The position numbers were made by a program, and so were the translations under genes. Shown here in pieces: positions 488 through 13,068 of a stretch of DNA of 13,509 bases. Position 1 is the stretch's first letter, and each line of letters starts with the position of its first letter. The DNA lies in the NCBI GenBank assembly GCA_028697015.1, contig JAQVFW010000014.1, positions 1 to 13,509 of the forward strand, written 5' to 3'. A model generated the notes under the pieces. That model saw only the letters and a list, made by a program, of their open reading frames with translations, ran no database searches and had not been told where the DNA came from. Source of the DNA: Minisyncoccota bacterium (GTDB lineage: Bacteria; Patescibacteriota; Minisyncoccia; Minisyncoccales; GWA2-38-27).

Positions 488-1036
488 TTATATCCCCGGT
501 ATTTTCACTTGATTTAAAATACCCATTATTATTTCAAATAAAGGAGCATCTTTATCTTCAAGAATTAAAAACCAATAAAGGAAAAAGGCAAGCGTTAAAA
601 GAAAAACTATAGAAAGAAGAAAAATAAAAAATCTGATTAAAAACTTTTTAAAAGAAGACGGCTTTGGAGGAAGGGCGCGAGAAGAGGCAATAGGTGCATT
701 TACTGTTTTATCTTTTTCTATTTCCTTCTTAATTTCTTCTGTTGTTTCCCTTTTTTCTTCATTTCCTATTTTTCTTAAAATTTCTTCTTTATTTTTTTCT
801 TCCTCTTTCTGCCATTTTTCTGACGCCTCTTTCTTCATTTTTTCTTCTATTTCCTTTTCAAGATCAACGTTTTCTTTTTTTTCTTTATTGACATTGTTTT
901 TTACCTCTATCCCTTCTCTTATTTCTTTTGCGATTTCAGAAGAAAGATCCTCCCCGCTTATAATTCCTTCTTTAATATCGGAAGGTTTTTTTTCGGGAAT
1001 ATTTTTTTCTTTTAAGTATTCATCGTATAAAGACAT
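488..1036 (-). CDS. hypothetical K/E-rich protein with a single C-terminal transmembrane anchor (tail-anchored, 182 aa)
   Basis: ORF on the purine-rich minus strand. The N-terminal ~120 aa is a charged K/E low-complexity (coiled-coil-like) region, followed by a Pro-rich linker (ALPPKPSSFKKF) and a hydrophobic helix (LIRFFIFLLSIVFLLTLAFFLYWFLIL). The start ATG (1036..1034) is 1 nt downstream of the TAA stop of the upstream 512-aa ORF (1038-1040), in a TAAtATG arrangement. No Shine-Dalgarno sequence is visible. It could partly be an ORF-finder artefact of purine-rich sequence. Confidence 0.45.
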   Translation of the reverse strand: MSLYDEYLKEKNIPEKKPSDIKEGIISGEDLSSEIAKEIREGIEVKNNVNKEKKENVDLEKEIEEKMKKEASEKWQKEEEKNKEEILRKIGNEEKRETTEEIKKEIEKDKTVNAPIASSRALPPKPSSFKKFLIRFFIFLLSIVFLLTLAFFLYWFLILEDKDAPLFEIIMGILNQVKIPGI

Positions 1037-2625: not shown

Positions 2626-4743
2626 TTATTTTTCTTTACCTTTTTTGTCCTTGTTTTCAATCAAGGCAAGATTTATTCTTCCTTGATTATCAATTGATAT
2701 GACTTTGACAGAAACGGTATCTCCTACGCTTACAACGTCCTCCACTTTATCAACTCTACGAGAAGCAAGTTTTGATATATGGATAAGCCCGTCTTGATTT
2801 GGAAGAAGATTGACAAAAGCTCCAAAATCGAGAATTCTTTCAACTTTTCCTTCAAACACTTCTCCAACTTCAACTTCTCTTACTATGTCTTTTATCATTG
2901 AAAGGGCTTTTTCTGCTAAGCTTGAATCCTCTGAAGTAATAAATACAAGTCCCGTTTGCTGGATATCTATGGAAGCTCCCGTCTTTTCAACAATCTCGTT
3001 TATGACTTTTCCTCCGGGTCCGATAACCTCTCTAATTTTCTCAGGATTTATCTCTAAAGTCAAGATTCTCGGAGCAAAAGGAGATAATTGTTCTCTTGGT
3101 GCAGGAATAGTTTTTTCCATTTTTTCTAAAATTTGAAGCCGCGCATCTTTTGCTCTCAGAAGGGCTTCCTTTAAAATCTGTCCTGTAATTCCCTTTACTT
3201 TGACATCAAGCTGAATGGCGGTTATTCCTTCTTTTGTCCCGGCAATTTTAAAATCCATATCTCCGTGATGATCTTCCGGTCCTTGAATATCTGTCAAAAC
3301 TTCATAATTTGAAGCGTCTTGTTGCATAAGTCCGATTGCAATTCCGGCTGCAGGTCTTTTAATGGGCACTCCTGCATCCATAAGGGCAAGACAGGAGCTT
3401 GATATTGAAGCCATTGAAGTTGAACCGTTTGAAGAAAGCATTTCCGAAACGATTCTTATCGTATATGGAAAATCCTCAAAAGCAGGAATAAGAGGAAATA
3501 TCGCTTTTTCAGCAAGCATCCCGTGCCCTATTTCTCTTCTTCCCGGGCCCCTCATCGGTTTTGTTTCTCCGACAGAAAAAGGAGGGAAGTTATAGTGGTG
3601 CATAAATCTTTTTTTTCCGGCTATTTCCATTCCTTCTATAAGCTGCTGGTCTCCGGGAGCTCCTAGGGTTAAAATAGAAAGTCCTTTTGTCTGTCCTCTT
3701 GAAAAGAGAGCTGAACCGTGAGTTCTCGGCAGAAGGCCGACTTCACATTTAATTTCCCTAACCTCATTCATTTTTCTTCCATCAACTCTTTTTTTGAATT
3801 TTACAGCTCCCTCATGAATCAGCAGGTCAGTTTCTTTTTCTATAAATTTTCCAATGTATTTTTCTTTTGAATCTTCTTTGTATTTTTCATTTACAAAAGA
3901 TACAAGCTCTTTTTTTATTTTTTCCACTTCTTCAGATCTTTTTTTCTTGTCATTTTGAAAAAGAGCTTCTCTAAATCGTTCTCCTAAAAATTCCCTCATT
4001 TCCTTCTCGAGAATTTCATCTTTTTGAGGCAAAGAGATTTCTTTTTTCGCCTTTCCTATTTCTTTTGCTATATTTTTTTGGAAATCAATCATTTTTTCCA
4101 AATATTCTCTTGCAAAATCAAGGGCCTTTTCCACTTCTTCTTCTTTTGCTTCATTAAGGCCTCCTTCTATCATGTTTATAAGAAGATTTCCATTTTCAAT
4201 AATTCCGGTAAAGACAATGTCAAATTGGCTTTTTTCCCTTTCTTCGTAAGTGGGATTTACAACAAAAGAGCCGTCTACCTTTCCCACTCTTATTACTCCG
4301 ACAGGACCATTCCAAGGTATGTCAGATATTGCAAGGGCTATAGAAGAAGAAAGGATACCCAAAACATCCGGATCATTTTTTCCATCCCATGAAAAAACCG
4401 TTGCCACAACCTGTATCTCAGAAGAAAGTCCTTCGTCAAAAAGAGGACGAATAGTCCTGTCTATAATACGGGCATTGCAAATTGCCTCATCAGAGGGCCT
4501 GCCTTCTCTTTTTATATATCGGGCCCCTTTTATTTTCCCGGCTGCATAATATTTTTCTTCATAATCAACCATAAGCGGGAAAAAACCCATATCTTCCCTT
4601 TCTCTGCCCATAACACAGGTTGACAAAACCAGAGTATCCCCGCAACTGACCATTATATTCCCGTTCGTCTGTTCGGCAATATTTTTATTTTCTACTTCTA
4701 TCTTCTTGCTTCCAAGATCTAAAGTAAATTTCTTATTCTCCAT
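2626..4743 (-). CDS. pnp: polynucleotide phosphorylase / polyribonucleotide nucleotidyltransferase (PNPase)
   Basis: Full PNPase architecture is readable in the translation: two RNase PH-like domains (e.g. FSVGETKPMRGPGRREIGHGMLAEKA; GSTSMASISSSCLALMDAGVPIKRPAAGIAIGL), then a KH domain (GPGGKVINEIVEKTGASIDI) and a C-terminal S1 domain (GEVFEGKVERILDFGAFVNLLPNQDGLIHISKL). The preferred start is the internal ATG at 4743 (MENKKFTLDLG...), preceded by AGGAcaaaaaaaa. The ORF-track start at 4803 adds an unlikely 20-aa basic extension. Confidence 0.95.
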   Translation of the reverse strand: MENKKFTLDLGSKKIEVENKNIAEQTNGNIMVSCGDTLVLSTCVMGREREDMGFFPLMVDYEEKYYAAGKIKGARYIKREGRPSDEAICNARIIDRTIRPLFDEGLSSEIQVVATVFSWDGKNDPDVLGILSSSIALAISDIPWNGPVGVIRVGKVDGSFVVNPTYEEREKSQFDIVFTGIIENGNLLINMIEGGLNEAKEEEVEKALDFAREYLEKMIDFQKNIAKEIGKAKKEISLPQKDEILEKEMREFLGERFREALFQNDKKKRSEEVEKIKKELVSFVNEKYKEDSKEKYIGKFIEKETDLLIHEGAVKFKKRVDGRKMNEVREIKCEVGLLPRTHGSALFSRGQTKGLSILTLGAPGDQQLIEGMEIAGKKRFMHHYNFPPFSVGETKPMRGPGRREIGHGMLAEKAIFPLIPAFEDFPYTIRIVSEMLSSNGSTSMASISSSCLALMDAGVPIKRPAAGIAIGLMQQDASNYEVLTDIQGPEDHHGDMDFKIAGTKEGITAIQLDVKVKGITGQILKEALLRAKDARLQILEKMEKTIPAPREQLSPFAPRILTLEINPEKIREVIGPGGKVINEIVEKTGASIDIQQTGLVFITSEDSSLAEKALSMIKDIVREVEVGEVFEGKVERILDFGAFVNLLPNQDGLIHISKLASRRVDKVEDVVSVGDTVSVKVISIDNQGRINLALIENKDKKGKEK

Positions 4744-4855
4744 TTTTTTTGTCCTTTTGCGAGAAACGAATGCTTTACGAATCCACCAAGTTGCATTTTG
4801 CAATTTATCTGAATTTGTAAAAAATTCGCACCCCCGCAGAAAGAACGGATTAAAA

Positions 4856-5359
4856 TTATTTGCTTAACAAAAACCTTTCCTTTTTTTCAGAAAGGTCTAT
4901 AAATTCGTCTGCCGTTTCTCTAAGTAAAGAAGAAGAAGACCTTGAAAAGGCCATTACTTCCACTCTTTTTCCCTGATTCTTTAAATATTCGACAAGAGCT
5001 ATAAAGTCCCCGTCTCCAGAGGCAAGAACAAGAACATCAACACTTGGAGCAATTCTTATAGCGTCAATTACTATTCCAACATCCCAATCCGCTTTCTTCG
5101 CTCCTCCATAAAATTCCTGCAAGTCCCTTACTCTTGTTTCTATACCTAAGTTTGTAAGAGCTTCAAAAAAGGGCTTTTCTTCTCCTGTTTTCGTTTTTAC
5201 AACGTAACCAAAAGCTCTTATTAAAGACCTCTTGCCTATTGCCGTTTTAAGTATTTCTTTAAAATTTACCCGGGATCTGTGAAGATTTTTTGCCGAATGG
5301 TAAAGGTTTTGGACATCTATTAAAACGCCTACTCTTTGTCCACTGTGCTTTATTACCAT
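4856..5359 (-). CDS. NYN-domain (LabA-like/DUF88, PIN-like) predicted ribonuclease, 167 aa
   Basis: PIN/NYN-like arrangement of conserved acidic residues: VLIDVQNL (Asp near the N-terminus), ADWDVGIVIDAI and LASGDGDF (Asp clusters) in an alpha/beta pattern of about 160 aa. It lies between rpsO and pnp on the same strand. Confidence 0.75.
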   Translation of the reverse strand: MVIKHSGQRVGVLIDVQNLYHSAKNLHRSRVNFKEILKTAIGKRSLIRAFGYVVKTKTGEEKPFFEALTNLGIETRVRDLQEFYGGAKKADWDVGIVIDAIRIAPSVDVLVLASGDGDFIALVEYLKNQGKRVEVMAFSRSSSSLLRETADEFIDLSEKKERFLLSK

Positions 5360-5398
5360 AAATTAAAATTAAATAAGACGCTCAATTAAAAGCTTCAC

Positions 5399-5665: not shown

Positions 5666-5718
5666 ATTTTTATTTTTCTGAATAAATTTTATTTCTTAAA
5701 TATCTTTAAAATTATTTG

Positions 5719-5791
5719 TGCCCCCACCAGGATTCGAACCTGGAACTAATTGCTTAAGAGGCAACTACTCTGCCAATTGAGTTATAGGGGC
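5719..5791 (-). tRNA. tRNA-Lys (anticodon CTT), 73 nt, no encoded 3' CCA
   Basis: Minus-strand sequence GCCCCTA-TA-ACTC-AATTGGCA-GAGT-A-GTTGC-CTCTTAA-GCAAT-TAGTT-CCAGG-TTCGAAT-CCTGG-TGGGGGC-A folds into a canonical cloverleaf. The 7-bp acceptor stem has one G-U pair. The D-stem is ACTC/GAGT and the D-loop contains GG. The 5-bp anticodon stem carries U33, anticodon C34-T35-T36 (CTT) and A37. The T-arm is CCAGG-TTCGAAT-CCTGG. The next bases (CAAA) are not CCA. Confidence 0.85.
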
Positions 5792-5831
5792 CTGCCCTTT
5801 ACTTAATTTTGGCTTTGTTTTTTATATATCG

Positions 5832-6209
5832 TCAACAGGATATCTGCCACCAGCTTGGACTTACTCCGATTGAAGTAAGAAAAAGATTCAGAATAATCCA
5901 CCCTCCCCATATGATTATAAGGCCAATGGCAACCGTTTTAAAAATAGATCTTGCTTTTGTAAACGCTTCTCCTCCCGAATCTGTAATATATGGCATTACC
6001 ATAAACATAGCTCCTATTATAATCATAAGGACAGCAAGAGGAGCTGCAATATAATGTTGTATAAACCCAACAATATTTGCAATCATCTGAAAAAAATCAC
6101 ACAGGGTACAATTAAAAATGGTACAAGGAACAATAGGAGTATACCCACCGGCATAGGCAAAATTAAAGGAAAAAAGAAACAGAAATATTAGTAAAATTAC
6201 TTTTTTCAT
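5832..6209 (-). CDS. small secreted/membrane protein: cleavable signal peptide, then a Cys-containing segment and two transmembrane helices (topology like T4SS VirB2/TrbC pilins)
   Basis: MKKVILLIFLFLFSFNFAYA is a typical Sec signal peptide with an AxA cleavage site. The ~105-aa mature part contains a CTIFNCTLC motif, then TM1 (IAAPLAVLMIIIGAMFMVM), a short polar loop (PYITDSGGEAFTKARSIFKT) and TM2 (VAIGLIIIWGGWIILNLFLTSIGV). No Shine-Dalgarno sequence is visible. The competing plus-strand ORF 5809-6054 has no features. Confidence 0.5.
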   Translation of the reverse strand: MKKVILLIFLFLFSFNFAYAGGYTPIVPCTIFNCTLCDFFQMIANIVGFIQHYIAAPLAVLMIIIGAMFMVMPYITDSGGEAFTKARSIFKTVAIGLIIIWGGWIILNLFLTSIGVSPSWWQISC

Positions 6210-6237
6210 ATCTTAAAAAAATATAGCATAAAAAAGA

Positions 6238-6264
6238 AAAATAGGCAACTAAATTGCCTATTTT
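6238..6264 (-). terminator. intrinsic terminator (bidirectional-capable) between the M23 peptidase gene and the small membrane-protein gene
   Basis: Perfect 8-bp stem ataggcaa/ttgcctat (6241-6248 and 6254-6261) with a 5-nt loop. It can extend by aaa/ttt flanks. T-runs follow on both strands (plus: tttaaaataa; minus: tttttcttttttatg). It lies 34 nt downstream of the M23 stop at 6298. Confidence 0.5.
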
Positions 6265-6297
6265 AAAATAATTAACATTGCTTTTTTTACAGAAGAA

Positions 6298-7302
6298 TTA
6301 AAAGCGGTGTCCGACTCTATACTTTGCCAAAGGATTTGTTCCTCCTCTAACCTCAAAATGCAAATGGCATCCGGTTGCTCCGATAGTATAACCCGTATTT
6401 CCCATATATCCTATCAGTGCCCCTTGGGAAACTTTTTGATTTACTGAAACGGAAATCTTTGAAAGATGTCCATAATAGGTAACCATTCCGTTTGGATGAA
6501 GTATTCTTATATACCTTCCTCCAATGTTATGATATCCCGTAATCTGTATTGTCCCTGCTGCAGATGCATAAACAGGAGTGCCACAGCTATTTGCAATATC
6601 AACCGCATTGTACCAATGAAGACCCTGGGTAATATATCCTTTTACGGGAACAATAAACCCCGAAAAAGAAGGTTGAACAGGAGAAGCGGGTCGAATAACC
6701 GGCATTTCTCCGTTTGGAACAACTATTATATCCCCAATATAAATGCTTCCTTCGTCTGGCAATTCGTTAAAAGAAACAATATCTTCCGCTTTGGCTTTGT
6801 ATTTTTTAGCTATTTCGCTAACCGTGTCTCCTCTTTTCACTTCATGAACAACTCCGGAAACAGGAGGAATGGCTAATTTTTGTCCAGTTTTTAAAACTGA
6901 CTTACTATTTAAATTATTTGCCCAAAGAATTGTATTTACGGAAATATCAAACTTTTCGGCAATACTTGAAATCGTTTCTTCTTCTTTTATTTCATATTCA
7001 ATAATTTCTTTGCCTCTTTCTTCAAAACTTGCAAGCGTTCCAAAAGAAGAATTTGTTAGGTATATCAAAGGAGAAGAGGCAGCAGCAATACTGCTATCTT
7101 CAATAAAACTCATTTCCGCTTCTACTGTAATAAAATTCCTTGAACTTTCGACAAATAAGATATCTGAGGCTCTGGCAGTTTCTCCAAAATAAAAACTTCC
7201 CTTTGAAGAAGTTTTAGTTGCCATAAGTGCCAGAATGGCCAGCATGGCTATTATTGTAAAAAAAATCGCCTTTTTTCCTATACTCGGCTCCGTTTTCAAC
7301 AT
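6298..7302 (-). CDS. membrane-anchored LysM-LysM-M23 family peptidoglycan DD-metalloendopeptidase
   Basis: N-terminal transmembrane helix (AIFFTIIAMLAILALMA). Two LysM repeats: YEIKEEETISSIAEKFDISVNTILWANNL...GQKLAIP and HEVKRGDTVSEIAKKYKAKAEDIVSFNEL...GDIIVVP. C-terminal M23 (LytM-like) domain with HxxxD (HWYNAVD) and HxH (GCHLHFEV), plus GYMGNTGYTIGATG. The start was moved to the in-frame ATG at 7302, which is preceded by GGAGaaat. The ORF-track start at 7338 is a TTG codon. Confidence 0.85.
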   Translation of the reverse strand: MLKTEPSIGKKAIFFTIIAMLAILALMATKTSSKGSFYFGETARASDILFVESSRNFITVEAEMSFIEDSSIAAASSPLIYLTNSSFGTLASFEERGKEIIEYEIKEEETISSIAEKFDISVNTILWANNLNSKSVLKTGQKLAIPPVSGVVHEVKRGDTVSEIAKKYKAKAEDIVSFNELPDEGSIYIGDIIVVPNGEMPVIRPASPVQPSFSGFIVPVKGYITQGLHWYNAVDIANSCGTPVYASAAGTIQITGYHNIGGRYIRILHPNGMVTYYGHLSKISVSVNQKVSQGALIGYMGNTGYTIGATGCHLHFEVRGGTNPLAKYRVGHRF

Positions 7303-8235: not shown

Positions 8236-10671
8236 ATGTCTTTGTTTAAAAACAACCTAAAAAGGAGAAAACTTTTAACATTTGTTTCTTTTTTTATTTT
8301 TTCTTTTATATTTTTTACTCCCCTTATTGCAAAAGGATTTGATCTTGGAATAGGAGAGGCCTTTGATACTTTTACAAGATATCTTTTAAGCTTGGTGCTA
8401 ACTATACCTCTTTTTTTTATTGGAATTATTCTAATGATACTCGTTTTGTTAGCCCAGCTTCTTGCTCTTTTAACAAGATCCATATTGATACTTGTGATGA
8501 GTCCCTACTTTATATCATGGAGTTATACTCAGCCTGCAACAAATCCGATAATAAGCCAAGGACTGCTGGTTACTCAAAGCTTAATGAATATGATTCTTGT
8601 TTTAGCCCTTCTTTATATAGGAATTGTGACAATACTTGGACTTGAAAGCTATAACACAAAGAAACTACTTATAACTTTTATAGTTATAGCTCTTCTTGTA
8701 AATTTTGCTCCCGTAATTACCGGACTTATTGTTGACCCTTCTAATATATTGATAAGATACTTTGTTACTCAAATTCCAGGAGGAGACGGAGGATTTATAA
8801 GCCGTACAGTTACCGCTCATAATTCTATTTTAGGAGGATTTTCACATATGGAAAATATTTGGGATGCTCTCAAAGGAGGCCTTCTTTTGACAACTGCCGG
8901 AATGGTGTTTAGAGCATCCGGACTTTTGATAGTTTATCTTCTTATTTCCCTAGCTTATCTTGGATTTATCGTCATTTTCACGGCAAGATATTTTGCAATT
9001 TGGCTACTTGTAATTTTGTCTCCTATTGCTTTTGTCTGCTATATCCTCCCTGAAACCCAAGGGATAGCAAGAAAATGGTGGAATGCTTTTATACAATGGA
9101 CCTTTATCGGAGTAACTGGGGCTTTTTTTCTTTATCTTGCCGAAGGATTTGCCATGATGAACCCCGCTTTAATTTATAGCTCCCTTACAATCCCTCAAGG
9201 AGGCGGATTTCTTTTATTAAGAGATCTTGTTGCACTCTTGGCTCCTGCTTTATTTGGAGTAATGCTCGCAATAATAGGACTAATGGTATCAGTATCAACA
9301 AGTGCTATAGGAGCTCAAATGGTACTTGGCGTTTCAAAAAAATATGGGAAAGCAGGAGCAATAAAAGGAGGAAAGTTTTTGACAAGGAGCATTCCTTCTG
9401 GATTGAAAGAACAAATGGCAAAGCAAACAAAAACCACCCTGCCTGGATTTGAAGGAAAAAGCGGAGGAGGTAAATTTGCTACAGGACTAGGATATGCAAC
9501 AGGTGTTATTCCTGCATATTGGGCAACGCGTAAAGCGGTAGGAGCAGCAGGAGTAGTATTAAAAGAAACAGAAAAAAAAGACAGAGCTCAAGCAAAAGAA
9601 AAATATAAAGGATCAACAATTGAAAAGAAAATGCAAGGAGTAAATTCTCCTTTTGAAAAAGAAAGAACAGCAGCACTTGTTATGGCAAATGAAGAGGGAA
9701 ATATAGGAGAAATGAAGAAAAAATACGGTCTTACAGATGATACGATAAAAGAGATTATAAAAGAAACAAGAGAACATTCCCCTGACGAATTTAAGAAGCT
9801 TAGAAAAACGATGCCTCAATATGCCAAAGAGCTGGTTTCCGACGATGAGCTTGCTCAAAAAGTTACAGATAAAGAAATTAAAGAACGTCTTGACAGTTCT
9901 TATGGAATAACAGACAAAGATGAGGTAGATAAAATACTTAAAGATGAAGAAGAAAGAAACAGAATTGCCAGAGAAGTTATTGATGATAAATTTCCGGATG
10001 AAAAAGACAAAGACAGAGCTAAACTTGATATAATTATAAGTCAGGTAAAAAAGAGCGATGTTGAATCTTGGTCTTCTGATGTTTTTGATGATGAAGAAGT
10101 AGTAAAAAGCATTTTAGTAAATGCAAAAGTTCAAATTATACCTGAAATAGCTGAAAATTTTGGAGAAAAAGCTCGCGAAAAGATACAAGAACAAGTAGAT
10201 TCTGGAGCAGAAATAAGCGCAAGTATGCATAGTTATCTTACGTCAAATGCAGGAAGAGCAATTTTCCCTATTGAAAATATACCACCTAGAACAACTTCAA
10301 CATCCAGTACACCCTCTACGCCATCTGGCTCAACTCCTTCAACACCTAGCACACCCTCTACGCCATCTGGTCCAACTCCTTCAACACCTAGTACACCCTC
10401 TACGCCATCTGGTCCAACTCCTTCAACACCTAGTACACCCTCTACGCCATCTGGCTCAACTCCTTCAACACCTAGCACACCCTCTACGCCATCTGGTCCA
10501 ACTCCTTCAACACCTAGTACACCCTCTACGCCATCTGGTCCAACTCCCCGAACAAGAGGAGGATATACACCCTCTACGCCATCTGGTCCAACTCCTTCAA
10601 CACCTAGTACACCCTCTACGCCATCTGGTCCAACTCCCCGAACAAGAGGAGGATATGGAAAAAATCCATAA
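8236..10671 (+). CDS. large polytopic membrane protein (~9-11 TM helices in the first ~365 aa) with a charged cytoplasmic-like central domain and a C-terminal Pro/Thr/Ser tandem-repeat tail; TrbL/VirB6-like topology (hypothesis)
   Basis: 2.4-kb ORF. N-terminal signal-anchor (LLTFVSFFIFSFIFFTPLIAKG), then many hydrophobic helices up to ~aa 365. Residues ~370-690 are K/E/D-rich and hydrophilic. Residues ~690-811 are TPSTPS(G/S)PTPSTPS repeats with two PRTRGGY insertions, ending GGYGKNP. TAA stop, followed by a strong terminator. No LPXTG or other sortase signal. Confidence 0.75.
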   Translation: MSLFKNNLKRRKLLTFVSFFIFSFIFFTPLIAKGFDLGIGEAFDTFTRYLLSLVLTIPLFFIGIILMILVLLAQLLALLTRSILILVMSPYFISWSYTQPATNPIISQGLLVTQSLMNMILVLALLYIGIVTILGLESYNTKKLLITFIVIALLVNFAPVITGLIVDPSNILIRYFVTQIPGGDGGFISRTVTAHNSILGGFSHMENIWDALKGGLLLTTAGMVFRASGLLIVYLLISLAYLGFIVIFTARYFAIWLLVILSPIAFVCYILPETQGIARKWWNAFIQWTFIGVTGAFFLYLAEGFAMMNPALIYSSLTIPQGGGFLLLRDLVALLAPALFGVMLAIIGLMVSVSTSAIGAQMVLGVSKKYGKAGAIKGGKFLTRSIPSGLKEQMAKQTKTTLPGFEGKSGGGKFATGLGYATGVIPAYWATRKAVGAAGVVLKETEKKDRAQAKEKYKGSTIEKKMQGVNSPFEKERTAALVMANEEGNIGEMKKKYGLTDDTIKEIIKETREHSPDEFKKLRKTMPQYAKELVSDDELAQKVTDKEIKERLDSSYGITDKDEVDKILKDEEERNRIAREVIDDKFPDEKDKDRAKLDIIISQVKKSDVESWSSDVFDDEEVVKSILVNAKVQIIPEIAENFGEKAREKIQEQVDSGAEISASMHSYLTSNAGRAIFPIENIPPRTTSTSSTPSTPSGSTPSTPSTPSTPSGPTPSTPSTPSTPSGPTPSTPSTPSTPSGSTPSTPSTPSTPSGPTPSTPSTPSTPSGPTPRTRGGYTPSTPSGPTPSTPSTPSTPSGPTPRTRGGYGKNP
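10309..10656 (+). repeat. near-perfect tandem array of 42-bp units (acaccctctacgccatctgg[c/t][t/c]caactccttcaacacctag[c/t]) with higher-order periodicity, inside the 3' end of the 811-aa CDS
   Basis: Full units at 10309, 10351, 10393, 10435, 10477 and 10567. Truncated 29-bp units followed by the 19-bp insert ccgaacaagaggaggatat lie at 10519 and 10609. Units 1 and 4 carry ggctca (Gly-Ser); the others carry ggtcca (Gly-Pro). This gives a 126-bp super-repeat (10309-10434 = 10435-10560 except for the end of unit 6) and an exact 90-bp duplication (10477-10566 = 10567-10656). Confidence 0.95.
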
Positions 10672-10724: not shown

Positions 10725-11774
10725 TCATTCTTCCGAAACTGAACGAAGTCCTTTTCTAAGAGCTTCCTGTAAACCAGGAATAGCCTGGACAACCATGCTA
10801 GCAGGAAGTGGGCTTTTTTCCATCGCCTCTAATATTCTAACAAGACTTCCTGTGTCTTCAAAATCTCTTATTGTAGCAAAAACCCTTTTAATTCTTTCAA
10901 CTTCAGCATCAGCATCAATAACTGTCGCTCTTTTTCGCATTTCTGCAAGATAAGGAGCTAATGTATTTTCTCTATACTCAGGAGGAGGATCTAATTCTTT
11001 AATTTGAATTTTTCGGACTTTAATTCCATATTCCTTTTCAAACTCGTCAAGAATCCCGGCACATAAAGTGAAAATATCATCACCCATATTACTTATTTCC
11101 GTTATCCATTCTCCATACTCTTTTTGGGTAATAAAATTTCTCACTTCCGGCTTAAGACGATTAATTAATGTTTCGAGCCAATTTTGGACTCTAAAAAGAG
11201 CACGATAAGGATTAATTATTTTAACTGTTAATTTAAGCTCTACTTTAAGAGGAAGAAGATTTTTATCTTCTGCTCTGTCTAAACCCGCCCAGTAAACATC
11301 TTCCTTAAGAAGAACGTAATCTAGTGTTCTTTTTGGATGATAAACTACTTTTTCTTGTTGGTTTATCCCTGACCACTCAAAACCATAGCCATAAATATCC
11401 CATAGTGGCCAAAATCCATAAAATCGCAATCCACCAAAGAGATGACTTTCTGATCCTTCTTTAACATTCCATTTATCATCTCCTGAATCAAAATAGGAAA
11501 AAGTTCTACCTTCCCATTGAATAAGAGCTTTTTCAAATTTGTCCGCTTTGACAATAACTTTTGCCGTTCCTTCATTAACAAAAGTAAAAAAAAGATTATT
11601 TGGTGCTAAAAAGAAAAAAATAACAAGAAAGATATAGGTAGGGCAACTTAAGAAAATACTTAAGATTATAGCCCAACCTAAAAAATTTCCAACCATAATT
11701 CCTAAAAAAATAGAAGAAAAAATAATTGCAATCAACCCAAAAAGGGAAAGAAAAATTTTCAAAAGAATCATCAT
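10725..11774 (-). CDS. SPFH/band-7 (stomatin/prohibitin/HflKC-like) domain membrane protein, paralog 1
   Basis: N-terminal TM helices (MMILLKIFLSLFGLIAIIFSSIFLGIMVGNFLGWAIILSIFL...). The SPFH-like core begins VNEGTAKVIVK. The C-terminal part (IKVRKIQIKELDPPPEY...LAEMRKRATVIDADAEVERIKRVF) resembles the conserved SPFH segment (V.I.DI.PP..V..AM...AER.RRA.I..AEGE). The start was reassigned to ATGATG at 11774 or 11771, which is preceded by a GGAGG Shine-Dalgarno sequence at 11784-11780. The ORF-track start at 11852 would overlap the promoter -35. Confidence 0.65.
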   Translation of the reverse strand: MMILLKIFLSLFGLIAIIFSSIFLGIMVGNFLGWAIILSIFLSCPTYIFLVIFFFLAPNNLFFTFVNEGTAKVIVKADKFEKALIQWEGRTFSYFDSGDDKWNVKEGSESHLFGGLRFYGFWPLWDIYGYGFEWSGINQQEKVVYHPKRTLDYVLLKEDVYWAGLDRAEDKNLLPLKVELKLTVKIINPYRALFRVQNWLETLINRLKPEVRNFITQKEYGEWITEISNMGDDIFTLCAGILDEFEKEYGIKVRKIQIKELDPPPEYRENTLAPYLAEMRKRATVIDADAEVERIKRVFATIRDFEDTGSLVRILEAMEKSPLPASMVVQAIPGLQEALRKGLRSVSEE

Positions 11775-11785
11775 TCCAACCTCCT

Positions 11786-11856
11786 TAATTTTCAAGGTTC
11801 CAACTAAAAAAGTTCTAATTAAAAATATAGCACTTCTTTTTGTTTTTGTCAAATTT
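11786..11856 (-). repeat. copy 1 of a ~70-bp direct repeat (second copy 13069-13138, ~97% identical) immediately upstream of SPFH gene 1
   Basis: Plus-strand aattttcaaggttccaactaaaaaagttctaattaaaaatatagcacttcttttt(g/a)tttttgtcaaatt occurs at both loci. Confidence 0.9.
11824..11852 (-). promoter_or_regulatory. sigma70-type promoter within repeat copy 1: -35 TTGACA (11852..11847), 17-bp spacer, -10 TATATT (11829..11824), driving SPFH gene 1
   Basis: The minus-strand reading is aaatTTGACAaaaacaaaaagaagtgcTATATTtttaattagaac. It has a consensus -35 and exact 17-bp spacing. A leader of ~40 nt reaches the GGAGG Shine-Dalgarno sequence and the ATG at 11774. Confidence 0.5.
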
Positions 11857-11947: not shown

Positions 11948-12862
11948 TTATTTGCCTAAAATTTTATTAATAGCATCAACTATTTTAGGATCTGCAAGAA
12001 CTTCTATAATTTTAGGAGAAATACTTACCTCTTTTATTTTTTTAGAAACAGTTCCTTTTTCTGTTTGAATAAGCTCAATAGCTTCAGAAGTAGATAAATT
12101 TCCTTCTTCCTTATATTTTTTAATAAAGTCAGCAATCTGTTTTAATTCTTTTTTTTCAATATCTATTTTAATCCCTTTGACTACTGATAATTCCGCCACT
12201 TTTGCAAATTCTCCAACAAAGCGCAATCCCGTGATATTTATCTGATTAATTTTAACTCCAAGTCCTTCATGAATAATACATCCCTTCCCTTGAATTACAT
12301 TTCTAACCTCTTTATCTCCAACTTCATTGCCACAGATAATCTTTAGTATAGAACTAATAGCACTATTTCCAGCATCCCCTAATTTTTTATAATTAAATGA
12401 CCTTGACCAGGATGTTATATTTCCATGAATAATGCTCTCAATTTCTTTTTTAACTCCTTTTTCTCCTCCACTGTTTAAAAAATTAATCAACAAAGGAGGA
12501 TCATAACAAGGAGTCCAAGTAATTGATATTTCAATAATATGTTTTACATTATCAGAAGAATAAATTTGAATAGAAATAGTTTGTCTAGTAGCTAATATTT
12601 TTACTAAAAAAACATTGAAAATAACAGGGTTAAGTGGAACAAATCTCCATCCCTCATTAAGAATTTCTTCTTGTCTTTGTCCAAGAAAAACAAGAACTCC
12701 TTTATGAGGAGGATCTACCTGTATCATTACTATACTATTGTAAAAAAACAACAGTAAAAGAATTAAAAAGCTCAAAGCCCACCATCCAATAAAAAAAGAG
12801 GATATTATAGTTATCGCGACTATAAAAGCCGGAACTAAAAAAAGAAAAATGGTTCTACTCAT
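11948..12862 (-). CDS. SPFH/band-7-like domain membrane protein, paralog 2
   Basis: Two N-terminal TM helices (IFLFLVPAFIVAITIISSFFIGWWALSFLILLLLFF). The SPFH-like segment begins VDPPHKGVLVFLGQRQEEILNEGWRFVPLNPV (cf. the SPFH N-terminal strand V.EGE.GVV.RFGK....PG..F..P). Its architecture is like that of the upstream paralog. The start is set at ATG 12862 (MSRTIFL), which is preceded by an AAGGAG Shine-Dalgarno sequence with a 6-nt spacer. Confidence 0.55.
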   Translation of the reverse strand: MSRTIFLFLVPAFIVAITIISSFFIGWWALSFLILLLLFFYNSIVMIQVDPPHKGVLVFLGQRQEEILNEGWRFVPLNPVIFNVFLVKILATRQTISIQIYSSDNVKHIIEISITWTPCYDPPLLINFLNSGGEKGVKKEIESIIHGNITSWSRSFNYKKLGDAGNSAISSILKIICGNEVGDKEVRNVIQGKGCIIHEGLGVKINQINITGLRFVGEFAKVAELSVVKGIKIDIEKKELKQIADFIKKYKEEGNLSTSEAIELIQTEKGTVSKKIKEVSISPKIIEVLADPKIVDAINKILGK

Positions 12863-13068
12863 TTCTATCTCCTTTTCTTTCGACTTTGTTGTGTTCACTA
12901 AATTTTAAATTGGTAATAACAGAGAAATAAAATAATAAGAATAACAGCAATAAAAGGGAAATTTTAATAAAATCAACACTTTCTTTTAAATGCTGTTTTT
13001 TTTCTTTTATTAAGAAGATACCCTAAAAGGCGAATCTTATTATAATTTTCCATTCCTTTTCTCCATTG

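Follow-up and report, generated by a model that had tools for sequence, protein, structure and literature searches.

A predicted NYN-domain endoribonuclease gene between rpsO and pnp in Parcubacteria

What is a gene for a NYN-domain protein doing between rpsO, which encodes ribosomal protein S15, and pnp, which encodes the 3'-5' exonuclease polynucleotide phosphorylase (PNPase)? The question is raised by a stretch of 13,509 nucleotides (nt) from a Minisyncoccota bacterium (contig JAQVFW010000014.1 of assembly GCA_028697015.1). We refer to the whole stretch as the window; the genes of the rpsO-NYN-pnp module in it all lie on the minus strand. To our knowledge, RNA processing and decay are essentially unstudied in Patescibacteria, which make up a large share of bacterial diversity, and our literature search found no paper linking NYN, LabA, or DUF88 with rpsO/pnp or with Patescibacteria. 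The domain family and the annotation of the gene, "NYN domain-containing protein" in public records, were already known; what appears to be new is a three-gene variant of the rpsO-pnp operon whose additional gene comes from a nuclease family that has no established function. With moderate confidence, we favor the reading that the NYN protein, encoded in a conserved unit of Parcubacteria/Paceibacteria, acts as a housekeeping endoribonuclease that depends on metal ions, is made with S15 and usually with PNPase, and feeds PNPase.

Domain, fold, and active site of the NYN protein

The window protein matched the NYN family PF01936 over residues 9–156, covering profile positions 1–144 of 145 (E=3.4e-33; 115.6 bits against a cut-off of 24.2). 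A search at the sequence level with a profile of 28 homologues matched one solved structure, PDB 2qip (Vibrio parahaemolyticus VPA0982; E=4.6e-32). The AlphaFold (AF2) model of the protein (pLDDT 84, pTM 0.82), in which strands and helices alternate, gave 2qip as the best Foldseek match (E=1e-15, TM 0.79) and the NYN domain of MARF1 as the second (E=7e-6); the predicted model and these matches indicated a PIN-like alpha/beta/alpha fold with a parallel sheet. A sequence-only reading of the window had assigned the protein to the NYN/PIN fold from conserved Asp clusters, and the hidden Markov model, the 2qip sequence match, and the predicted fold all agreed with that assignment. The clusters themselves proved to be real: D15, N18, D91-W92-D93, D99, S114, and G115-D116-G117-D118 were invariant in 28 close homologues, and D15, N18, W92, D93, D99, D108, D116, and D118 were at least 95% conserved in 112 representatives with 38–65% identity. 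The four acidic residues, predicted to bind the metal ion, and the Asn after strand 1 that are expected of the fold were thus present, with D178/N181 and S270/D272 of MARF1 as their motif-level counterparts. The NYN domain of MARF1 is a proven Mg2+/Mn2+-dependent RNase that requires four Asp residues plus a conserved Asn and Ser, prefers single-stranded RNA (ssRNA), and cuts double-stranded RNA (dsRNA) poorly (PMC6217404).

Both structural relatives resembled the window protein only in part. The 2qip protein aligned with residues 7–158 and shared the D-V-Q-N, GDWDVG..D, and SGDGDF motifs, and both are single-domain proteins of approximately 165 amino acids (aa); however, 2qip has no known function, and the S15/PNPase context and the unusually high conservation are features of the window subfamily. 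The MARF1 domain (PDB 5yaa and 6fdl) shared two motifs, D-x-x-N (strand 1) and S-x-D, but its identity was only 18%, and MARF1 is a eukaryotic protein with a germline role that needs LOTUS domains for RNA binding, whereas the window protein has no extra domain. By its sequence, the window protein belongs to the LabA-like NYN.COG1432 group of the 2017 PIN-superfamily classification, where S15 and PNPase were not mentioned (PMC5499597). Membership of TIGR00288, an archaeal-type NYN family, was rejected at 28.8 bits against a cut-off of 178.45, although JGI labels some homologues TIGR00288. At E<=0.01, the window protein gave no match to the NYN_YacP/Rae1 family PF05991, and PF01936 alone was reported. 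Rae1/YacP (PF05991) is a ribosome-dependent mRNA endonuclease of Bacillus subtilis, a small NYN-clade nuclease encoded among translation genes. It may therefore serve as a model for a stand-alone NYN protein acting on ribosome-bound mRNA, although its Pfam family and its gene neighborhood are different.

The window protein was identical to one recorded from a metagenome-assembled genome (MAG) of "Candidatus Pacebacteria", and close homologues occurred in Nealsonbacteria and similar groups. Many homologues at 50–60% identity (P0121–P0270, for example P0127, P0143, P0166, and P0152) carried disordered-looking N- or C-terminal tails, 50–250 residues long and with abundant Lys, Ser, Thr, and Asn, and such long basic Lys/Ser/Thr-rich tails would fit RNA binding. 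Others at approximately 42% identity (P0235, P0243, and P0245) had a long N-terminal extension before the NYN domain. Close homologues with 52–55% identity were also present in DPANN archaea (Nanoarchaeota and Woesearchaeota), which suggests transfer between bacteria of the Candidate Phyla Radiation (CPR) and DPANN archaea.

Gene order, sequence constraint, and proposed function

The neighborhood of the gene was surveyed in two sets, each made up of the 80 best matches and all within Parcubacteria. For the close set, one genome per GTDB species was scanned and the best 80 of 565 relatives were kept, with MAGs labeled Nealsonbacteria, Staskawiczbacteria, Wildermuthbacteria, Azambacteria, Paceibacterota, and Parcubacteria. 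The divergent set consisted of metagenome loci ranked by similarity to the family consensus and not to the window protein, and their NYN proteins were 52–64% identical to that of the window; the named relatives resembling this set were Nomurabacteria, Taylorbacteria, Portnoybacteria, and Azambacteria, which are still Parcubacteria. Among close loci with enough DNA, rpsO was directly upstream of the NYN gene in 78/78 and pnp downstream in 79/79, all on the same strand. The median spacers were 9 nt (rpsO-NYN) and 18 nt (NYN-pnp), and stop/start overlaps of 1–4 nt were common; short or overlapping spacers of this kind usually mark genes that are transcribed together and coupled in translation, which they suggest here. 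In the window and in all 80 close species genomes, rpsO and pnp were co-oriented but separated by the NYN gene, and the direct adjacency of the E. coli type was not encountered. In the divergent set, rpsO preceded the NYN gene in 70 of the 73 loci with room for it, and pnp followed in 46 of about 70. The tightest partner of the NYN gene is therefore rpsO, with pnp usually, but not always, attached.

Because gene order, strand, and position were kept across the relatives, the NYN gene is not a sporadic insertion. The sequence-only reading had placed it, co-oriented with both neighbors, at gaps of 39 nt and about 110 bp, which we measured as 39 and 112 nt, and had proposed an operon-level link. 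That link held, since order, strand, and short or overlapping spacers were kept in the 80 species genomes and largely in the 80 divergent loci. The same reading was to be given up if the protein had no PF01936 match or if the gene was missing from this position in relatives, and neither was the case.

Sequence constraint on the protein pointed in the same direction as gene order. In the divergent set, NYN had a median identity of 58.8% to its window counterpart, compared with 48.9% (S15) and 48.0% (PNPase) for its neighbors; in 61/62 loci, NYN identity exceeded S15 identity. The corresponding comparison in the close set, in which NYN was above both S15 and PNPase (61/61), was set aside because those loci had been ranked by NYN similarity and were therefore biased. 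By these identities, conservation is higher in NYN than in either S15 or PNPase. Slower evolution than that of a ribosomal protein would, in so small a protein, reflect selection of the kind expected for a core function.

The reading that we favor can be set out as follows. In a unit with the order tRNA-Lys, rpsO, NYN, leader hairpin, and pnp, the middle gene would encode a stand-alone LabA-like enzyme of PIN fold with an intact acidic site, which would depend on Mg2+ or Mn2+ and cut single-stranded RNA. NYN and S15 would probably be made from one transcript, often by translational coupling, and PNPase usually from the same transcript. The enzyme would cut internally in mRNA or in precursors of rRNA or tRNA, perhaps while on the small ribosomal subunit or close to it, and PNPase would then remove the unstructured 3'-OH ends left by these cuts. 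NYN would thus fill the part in initiating decay or processing that RNase E or RNase Y holds beside PNPase in model bacteria. As in the RNase E-PNPase and RNase Y-PNPase pairs, an endonuclease and then PNPase would be expected to act in sequence, and the basic tails of the homologues recall the non-catalytic region of RNase E; however, there is no homology between these endonucleases and NYN, and the pairing in the window is known from genomes alone. A gene fixed between those for S15 and PNPase and encoding an intact site makes a concrete candidate for a core RNase of Patescibacteria. The rpsO-pnp context would also offer the whole NYN.COG1432 family a testable functional setting.

Several observations weigh against this reading. 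Catalytic activity, co-transcription, substrates, and cooperation with PNPase or the ribosome are predictions from sequence and gene context, and the whole NYN.COG1432 group is still classed as "function unknown" (PMC5499597). The median spacers in the divergent set were longer, at 93 and 162 nt. Since pnp was away from the NYN gene in about one-third of the divergent loci, cooperation with PNPase is not obligatory. Archaeal homologues (DPANN, Nanoarchaeota) at 52–55% identity, and some others, lacked the rpsO/pnp context. In addition, tRNA-Arg, a pilin-like gene, and tRNA-Lys were also kept in the closest set, so common descent within a single class accounts for some of the synteny.

The unequal attachment of rpsO and pnp bears on the best-surviving alternative, in which NYN is a nuclease of 30S or 16S rRNA maturation that acts with S15 on pre-16S rRNA or faulty 30S subunits while PNPase trims or degrades the products. 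A precedent is Nob1 of eukaryotes and archaea, a PIN-domain endonuclease whose site of action is the 18S/16S rRNA 3' end. The rpsO-NYN link was the most conserved one (70/73 divergent loci, against about two-thirds for pnp) and was kept where pnp was missing; with the hairpin upstream of pnp, described below, NYN falls on that side of the pnp leader which faces rpsO; and the nearest relatives outside the CPR were archaeal (Nanoarchaeota and Woesearchaeota). Bacterial NYN genes have also been tied to tRNA and rRNA processing through their gene neighborhoods (PMC5499597), and the gene for KsgA, a 16S dimethylase, lies 2 kb away in the window. However, KsgA was encoded near NYN in only 2/80 close loci, NYN has no sequence relation to Nob1, and adjacency to a ribosomal protein gene may merely exploit a strong promoter. 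We consider a role in 30S maturation a serious alternative, albeit a rather unlikely one.

Variation around the module took several forms. Single look-ups of representatives of 50% clusters gave the orders rpsO-NYN-X (P0123 and P0145), NYN-pnp without rpsO (P0136), and rpsO-NYN-pnp (P0163). Here X denotes a conserved single-pass membrane protein without a Pfam match; it has a charged N-terminus and one transmembrane (TM) helix, and its C-terminal domain, also conserved, ends in G-Y-x-F...FFDN. Its gene followed NYN where pnp was missing and followed pnp where pnp was present (L081 at 5771–6775; L094, L111, L137, L150, L171, and others), and it was not found in the window or in the 80 closest genomes; the window genes downstream of pnp showed no homology to X. 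This distribution suggests an ancestral order rpsO-NYN-pnp-X from which pnp was lost or relocated in some lineages.

Eight close loci (L033, L035, L039, L050, L062, L065, L069, and L076) carried inserts of 0.7–2.2 kb between NYN and pnp. The inserts held MNT/HepT and DUF433/DUF5615 toxin-antitoxin pairs and other sporadic genes, with a divergent second NYN paralogue in L039, and in L016 a gene for a 23S rRNA intervening-sequence protein (23S-IVP) was inserted between rpsO and NYN. These cassettes are sporadic and lie outside the module, and the operon spacers are recurrent insertion sites. UGA is known to be reassigned to Gly in Gracilibacteria. In two loci with NYN proteins of 54–57% identity, L086 (4001–4552 and 4713–5504) and L088 (4001–4789 and 4802–5602), TGA stood in place of the invariant Trp92 of NYN and also at a site of the downstream membrane protein that aligns with Trp; these codons, only four in number, point to UGA being read as Trp (code 4-like) and not as Gly.

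The pnp leader hairpin and the head of the unit

The spacer between NYN and pnp in the window folded into one long imperfect stem-loop with a minimum free energy (MFE) of -36.7 kcal/mol (z=-5.13), and 0/200 dinucleotide shuffles were as good. The hairpin base pairs with the AAGGA Shine-Dalgarno-like sequence upstream of the pnp ATG and is followed by A7 and then by that ATG; it was rejected as a terminator on the minus strand because A7 stands in place of a U-tract. All 25 relatives with an NYN-pnp spacer of 87–175 nt had a similar single long hairpin (median z -6.4, from mononucleotide shuffles as for all relatives). The hairpin sequences were unrelated and, across relatives, too divergent to align. 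That such hairpins are a general trait of spacers was rejected: the other co-directional spacers of 80–180 nt in the same loci had a median z of -1.7 against -6.4 (Mann-Whitney p=1e-8). In 8/8 loci with inserted genes, the long hairpin was directly upstream of pnp and not after NYN, and in the divergent set z was below -3 in 31/37 spacers upstream of pnp.

A short motif recurred in these hairpins. The 3' arm of the window hairpin has two AUUCGU motifs 11 nt apart (CGAAT on the plus strand at 4767 and 4778), and the 5' arm has CGAAU (ATTCG on the plus strand at 4824). The density of ATTCGTA/TACGAAT was 5.7 per kb in NYN-pnp spacers and 0.07 per kb elsewhere, an approximately 80-fold difference, and 3.2 per kb in the divergent set; the only other cluster was just upstream of the displaced pnp in L062. 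In the spacers of L003–L077 and L092–L171, AUUCGUA/UACGAAU was often repeated 7–11 nt apart, with the mRNA-sense AUUCGUA ahead by 13 to 5. When the whole window was scanned against Rfam at E<=1, tRNA alone was returned, with no S15 leader, pnp leader, or other family. The AUUCGUA-bearing hairpin may represent a cis-regulatory RNA not described before or a site bound by a protein.

In E. coli, rpsO likewise lies upstream of pnp on one strand, and the pnp 5' leader has a long stem-loop that is cut by RNase III, for which long duplexes are classic substrates; this cleavage starts the autoregulation of PNPase (PMC5029454). The hairpin of Parcubacteria looks like an apparent counterpart of that leader. 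The window differs in having a nuclease gene between rpsO and the leader, a tRNA gene at the head, and no terminator-like site of rpsO, and its hairpin has AUUCGUA and no Rfam match; cleavage by RNase III there is putative. With RNase III of E. coli as the query, tblastn found none in 1.08 Mb of loci, which is uninformative because the loci cover this neighborhood only. Conservation of the hairpin suggests that control of PNPase through a structured leader, as in E. coli, reaches very distant bacteria in a modified form. A bolder version of the favored reading would make NYN the principal RNase initiating decay and processing in Parcubacteria, associated with the ribosome or S15, coupled to PNPase, and in the role of RNase E/Y in these reduced genomes, and thus a new class of housekeeping bacterial RNase, with the hairpin as a new autoregulatory element of the module; we regard this version as distinctly doubtful.

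The hairpin also bears on whether NYN takes over from RNase III in processing the pnp leader, or the transcript of its own operon, and thereby brings about the autoregulation of PNPase. The gene is immediately upstream of the conserved hairpin, whose bulges, mismatches, and recurrent AUUCGUA might form a recognition site, and the sequence-only reading had indeed suggested such a substitution. However, a long hairpin of the RNase III type is still present directly upstream of pnp, which argues against NYN as a substitute for the pnp leader or for RNase III. In 46/79 close relatives, the NYN-pnp spacer was 43 nt or shorter, often an overlap, and thus without a hairpin, and all of them kept NYN; since about half of the loci have no such spacer, the role of NYN is not limited to the hairpin. 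NYN also persisted in lineages without adjacent pnp, and whereas the NYN domain of MARF1 is good on ssRNA and poor on dsRNA, long duplexes suit RNase III (PMC5029454). Processing of the leader by NYN is thus improbable, and this part of the sequence-only reading was not borne out.

At the other end of the unit, a tRNA gene on the same strand was found within 400 nt upstream of rpsO in 50/72 related loci, and was Lys-CTT in 48 (L001, L010, L011, L013, and others); 22/72 had none. In five loci, the tRNA ended only 4–8 nt before the rpsO ATG. Such a gap is too short to hold a promoter or a leader of normal length. It implies that tRNA and mRNA are co-transcribed and that, once the tRNA 3' end has been processed, the rpsO message is left almost leaderless. 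A promoter-like site with only a weak consensus match was present in the window just upstream of tRNA-Lys (5835–5806, minus strand), and none was found in the window between tRNA-Lys and rpsO. Between rpsO, NYN, and pnp, the minus strand of the window had no terminator-like site and no convincing internal promoter. From these features, the transcription unit probably starts with tRNA-Lys, and the likely primary transcript, tRNA-Lys-rpsO-NYN-leader-pnp, would need processing at least at the tRNA. Further upstream, a gene on the minus strand (5832–6209) encodes a membrane protein of 125 aa that weakly matches the type IV secretion system pilin family PF18895 (E=3e-4, below cut-off); its position was kept in most of the 80 related genomes, where tRNA-Arg(TCG) often precedes it.

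The protein-only RNase P contains a NYN domain, and NYN might in a similar way be a dedicated enzyme that splits tRNA-Lys from the rpsO-NYN-pnp mRNA. The directly upstream, same-strand tRNA-Lys(CTT) in 48/72 loci, sometimes only 4–8 nt from the rpsO start, would fit this role; however, the 22/72 loci without a tRNA within 400 nt keep NYN, RNase P and RNase Z normally suffice, and the 167-aa protein has no pentatricopeptide repeat (PPR) or other tRNA-binding domain, which makes a dedicated tRNA function very improbable. Least probable of all is a non-catalytic RNA-binding or regulatory protein, comparable to cyanobacterial LabA, or a toxin or defense nuclease inserted by chance: the phenotypes on record for LabA-like proteins are only regulatory (PMC5499597), the PADLOC profile PDLC01154 ("LabA-like NYN nuclease") gave a weak match (E=1.4e-11), and toxin-antitoxin pairs enter the NYN-pnp spacer in 8 loci, but the acidic active-site residues are kept across more than 100 diverse members, the PADLOC match is at the domain level only (positions 150–297 of 310) and neither full-length nor in a defense island, the neighbors are housekeeping genes with no adjacent antitoxin or defense partner, and a fixed position with conservation above that of S15 is the opposite of a mobile or defense gene.

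Coordinates and other features of the window

The positions of the module features are collected in Table 1. For pnp, the list of open reading frames (ORFs) gave a TTG start at 4803, which falls within the hairpin and was judged not to be the real start. The ATG at 4743 (MENKKF...) was chosen because the NCBIfam profile alignment starts only at residue 27–30 of the longer TTG ORF and because the relatives agree.

Table 1. Features of the rpsO-NYN-pnp module in the window
Feature	Position	Strand	Basis or remark
tRNA-Lys(CTT) gene	5718..5791	-	ARAGORN; Rfam tRNA 68.9 bits; 52 nt upstream of rpsO
rpsO, 30S ribosomal protein S15, 88 aa	5399..5665	-	PF00312 E=5.7e-31; TIGR00952 E=2e-33, above cut-off
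rpsO-NYN spacer, 39 nt, AT-rich	5360..5398	-	Fold z=-0.71, structure not significant
NYN gene, ATG start, 167 aa, single domain	4856..5359	-	PF01936
NYN-pnp spacer, 112 nt	4744-4855	-	Counted to pnp ATG at 4743
pnp leader hairpin, 41 base pairs	4751..4846	-	MFE folding
pnp, polynucleotide phosphorylase, 705 aa from ATG 4743	2626..4743	-	TIGR03591 E=2.8e-274; RNase_PH x2, KH, and S1 domains

Directly downstream of pnp, the minus strand encodes a 512-aa Lys/Glu-rich protein (1038–2576) of very low complexity without a significant Pfam match; its last approximately 90 residues hold a duplicated segment of approximately 30 aa (VYQYIRENSQNVEEDIKKAKIDKGFFNFI). It is followed by a gene for a 182-aa Lys/Glu-rich protein (488–1036, minus strand) with one TM helix and no significant Pfam match. 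On the plus strand, positions 8236–10671 encode an 811-aa multi-pass membrane protein without a Pfam match, which has Pro/Ser/Thr tandem repeats of the TPSTPSTPSGP type at its end, especially at 10250–10660; the opposite strand of this array gives a spurious 155-aa ORF of the same repeats. Two adjacent genes on the minus strand (10725–11852 and 11948–12898) encode SPFH/Band 7 membrane proteins, one above the Pfam cut-off and the other just below it.

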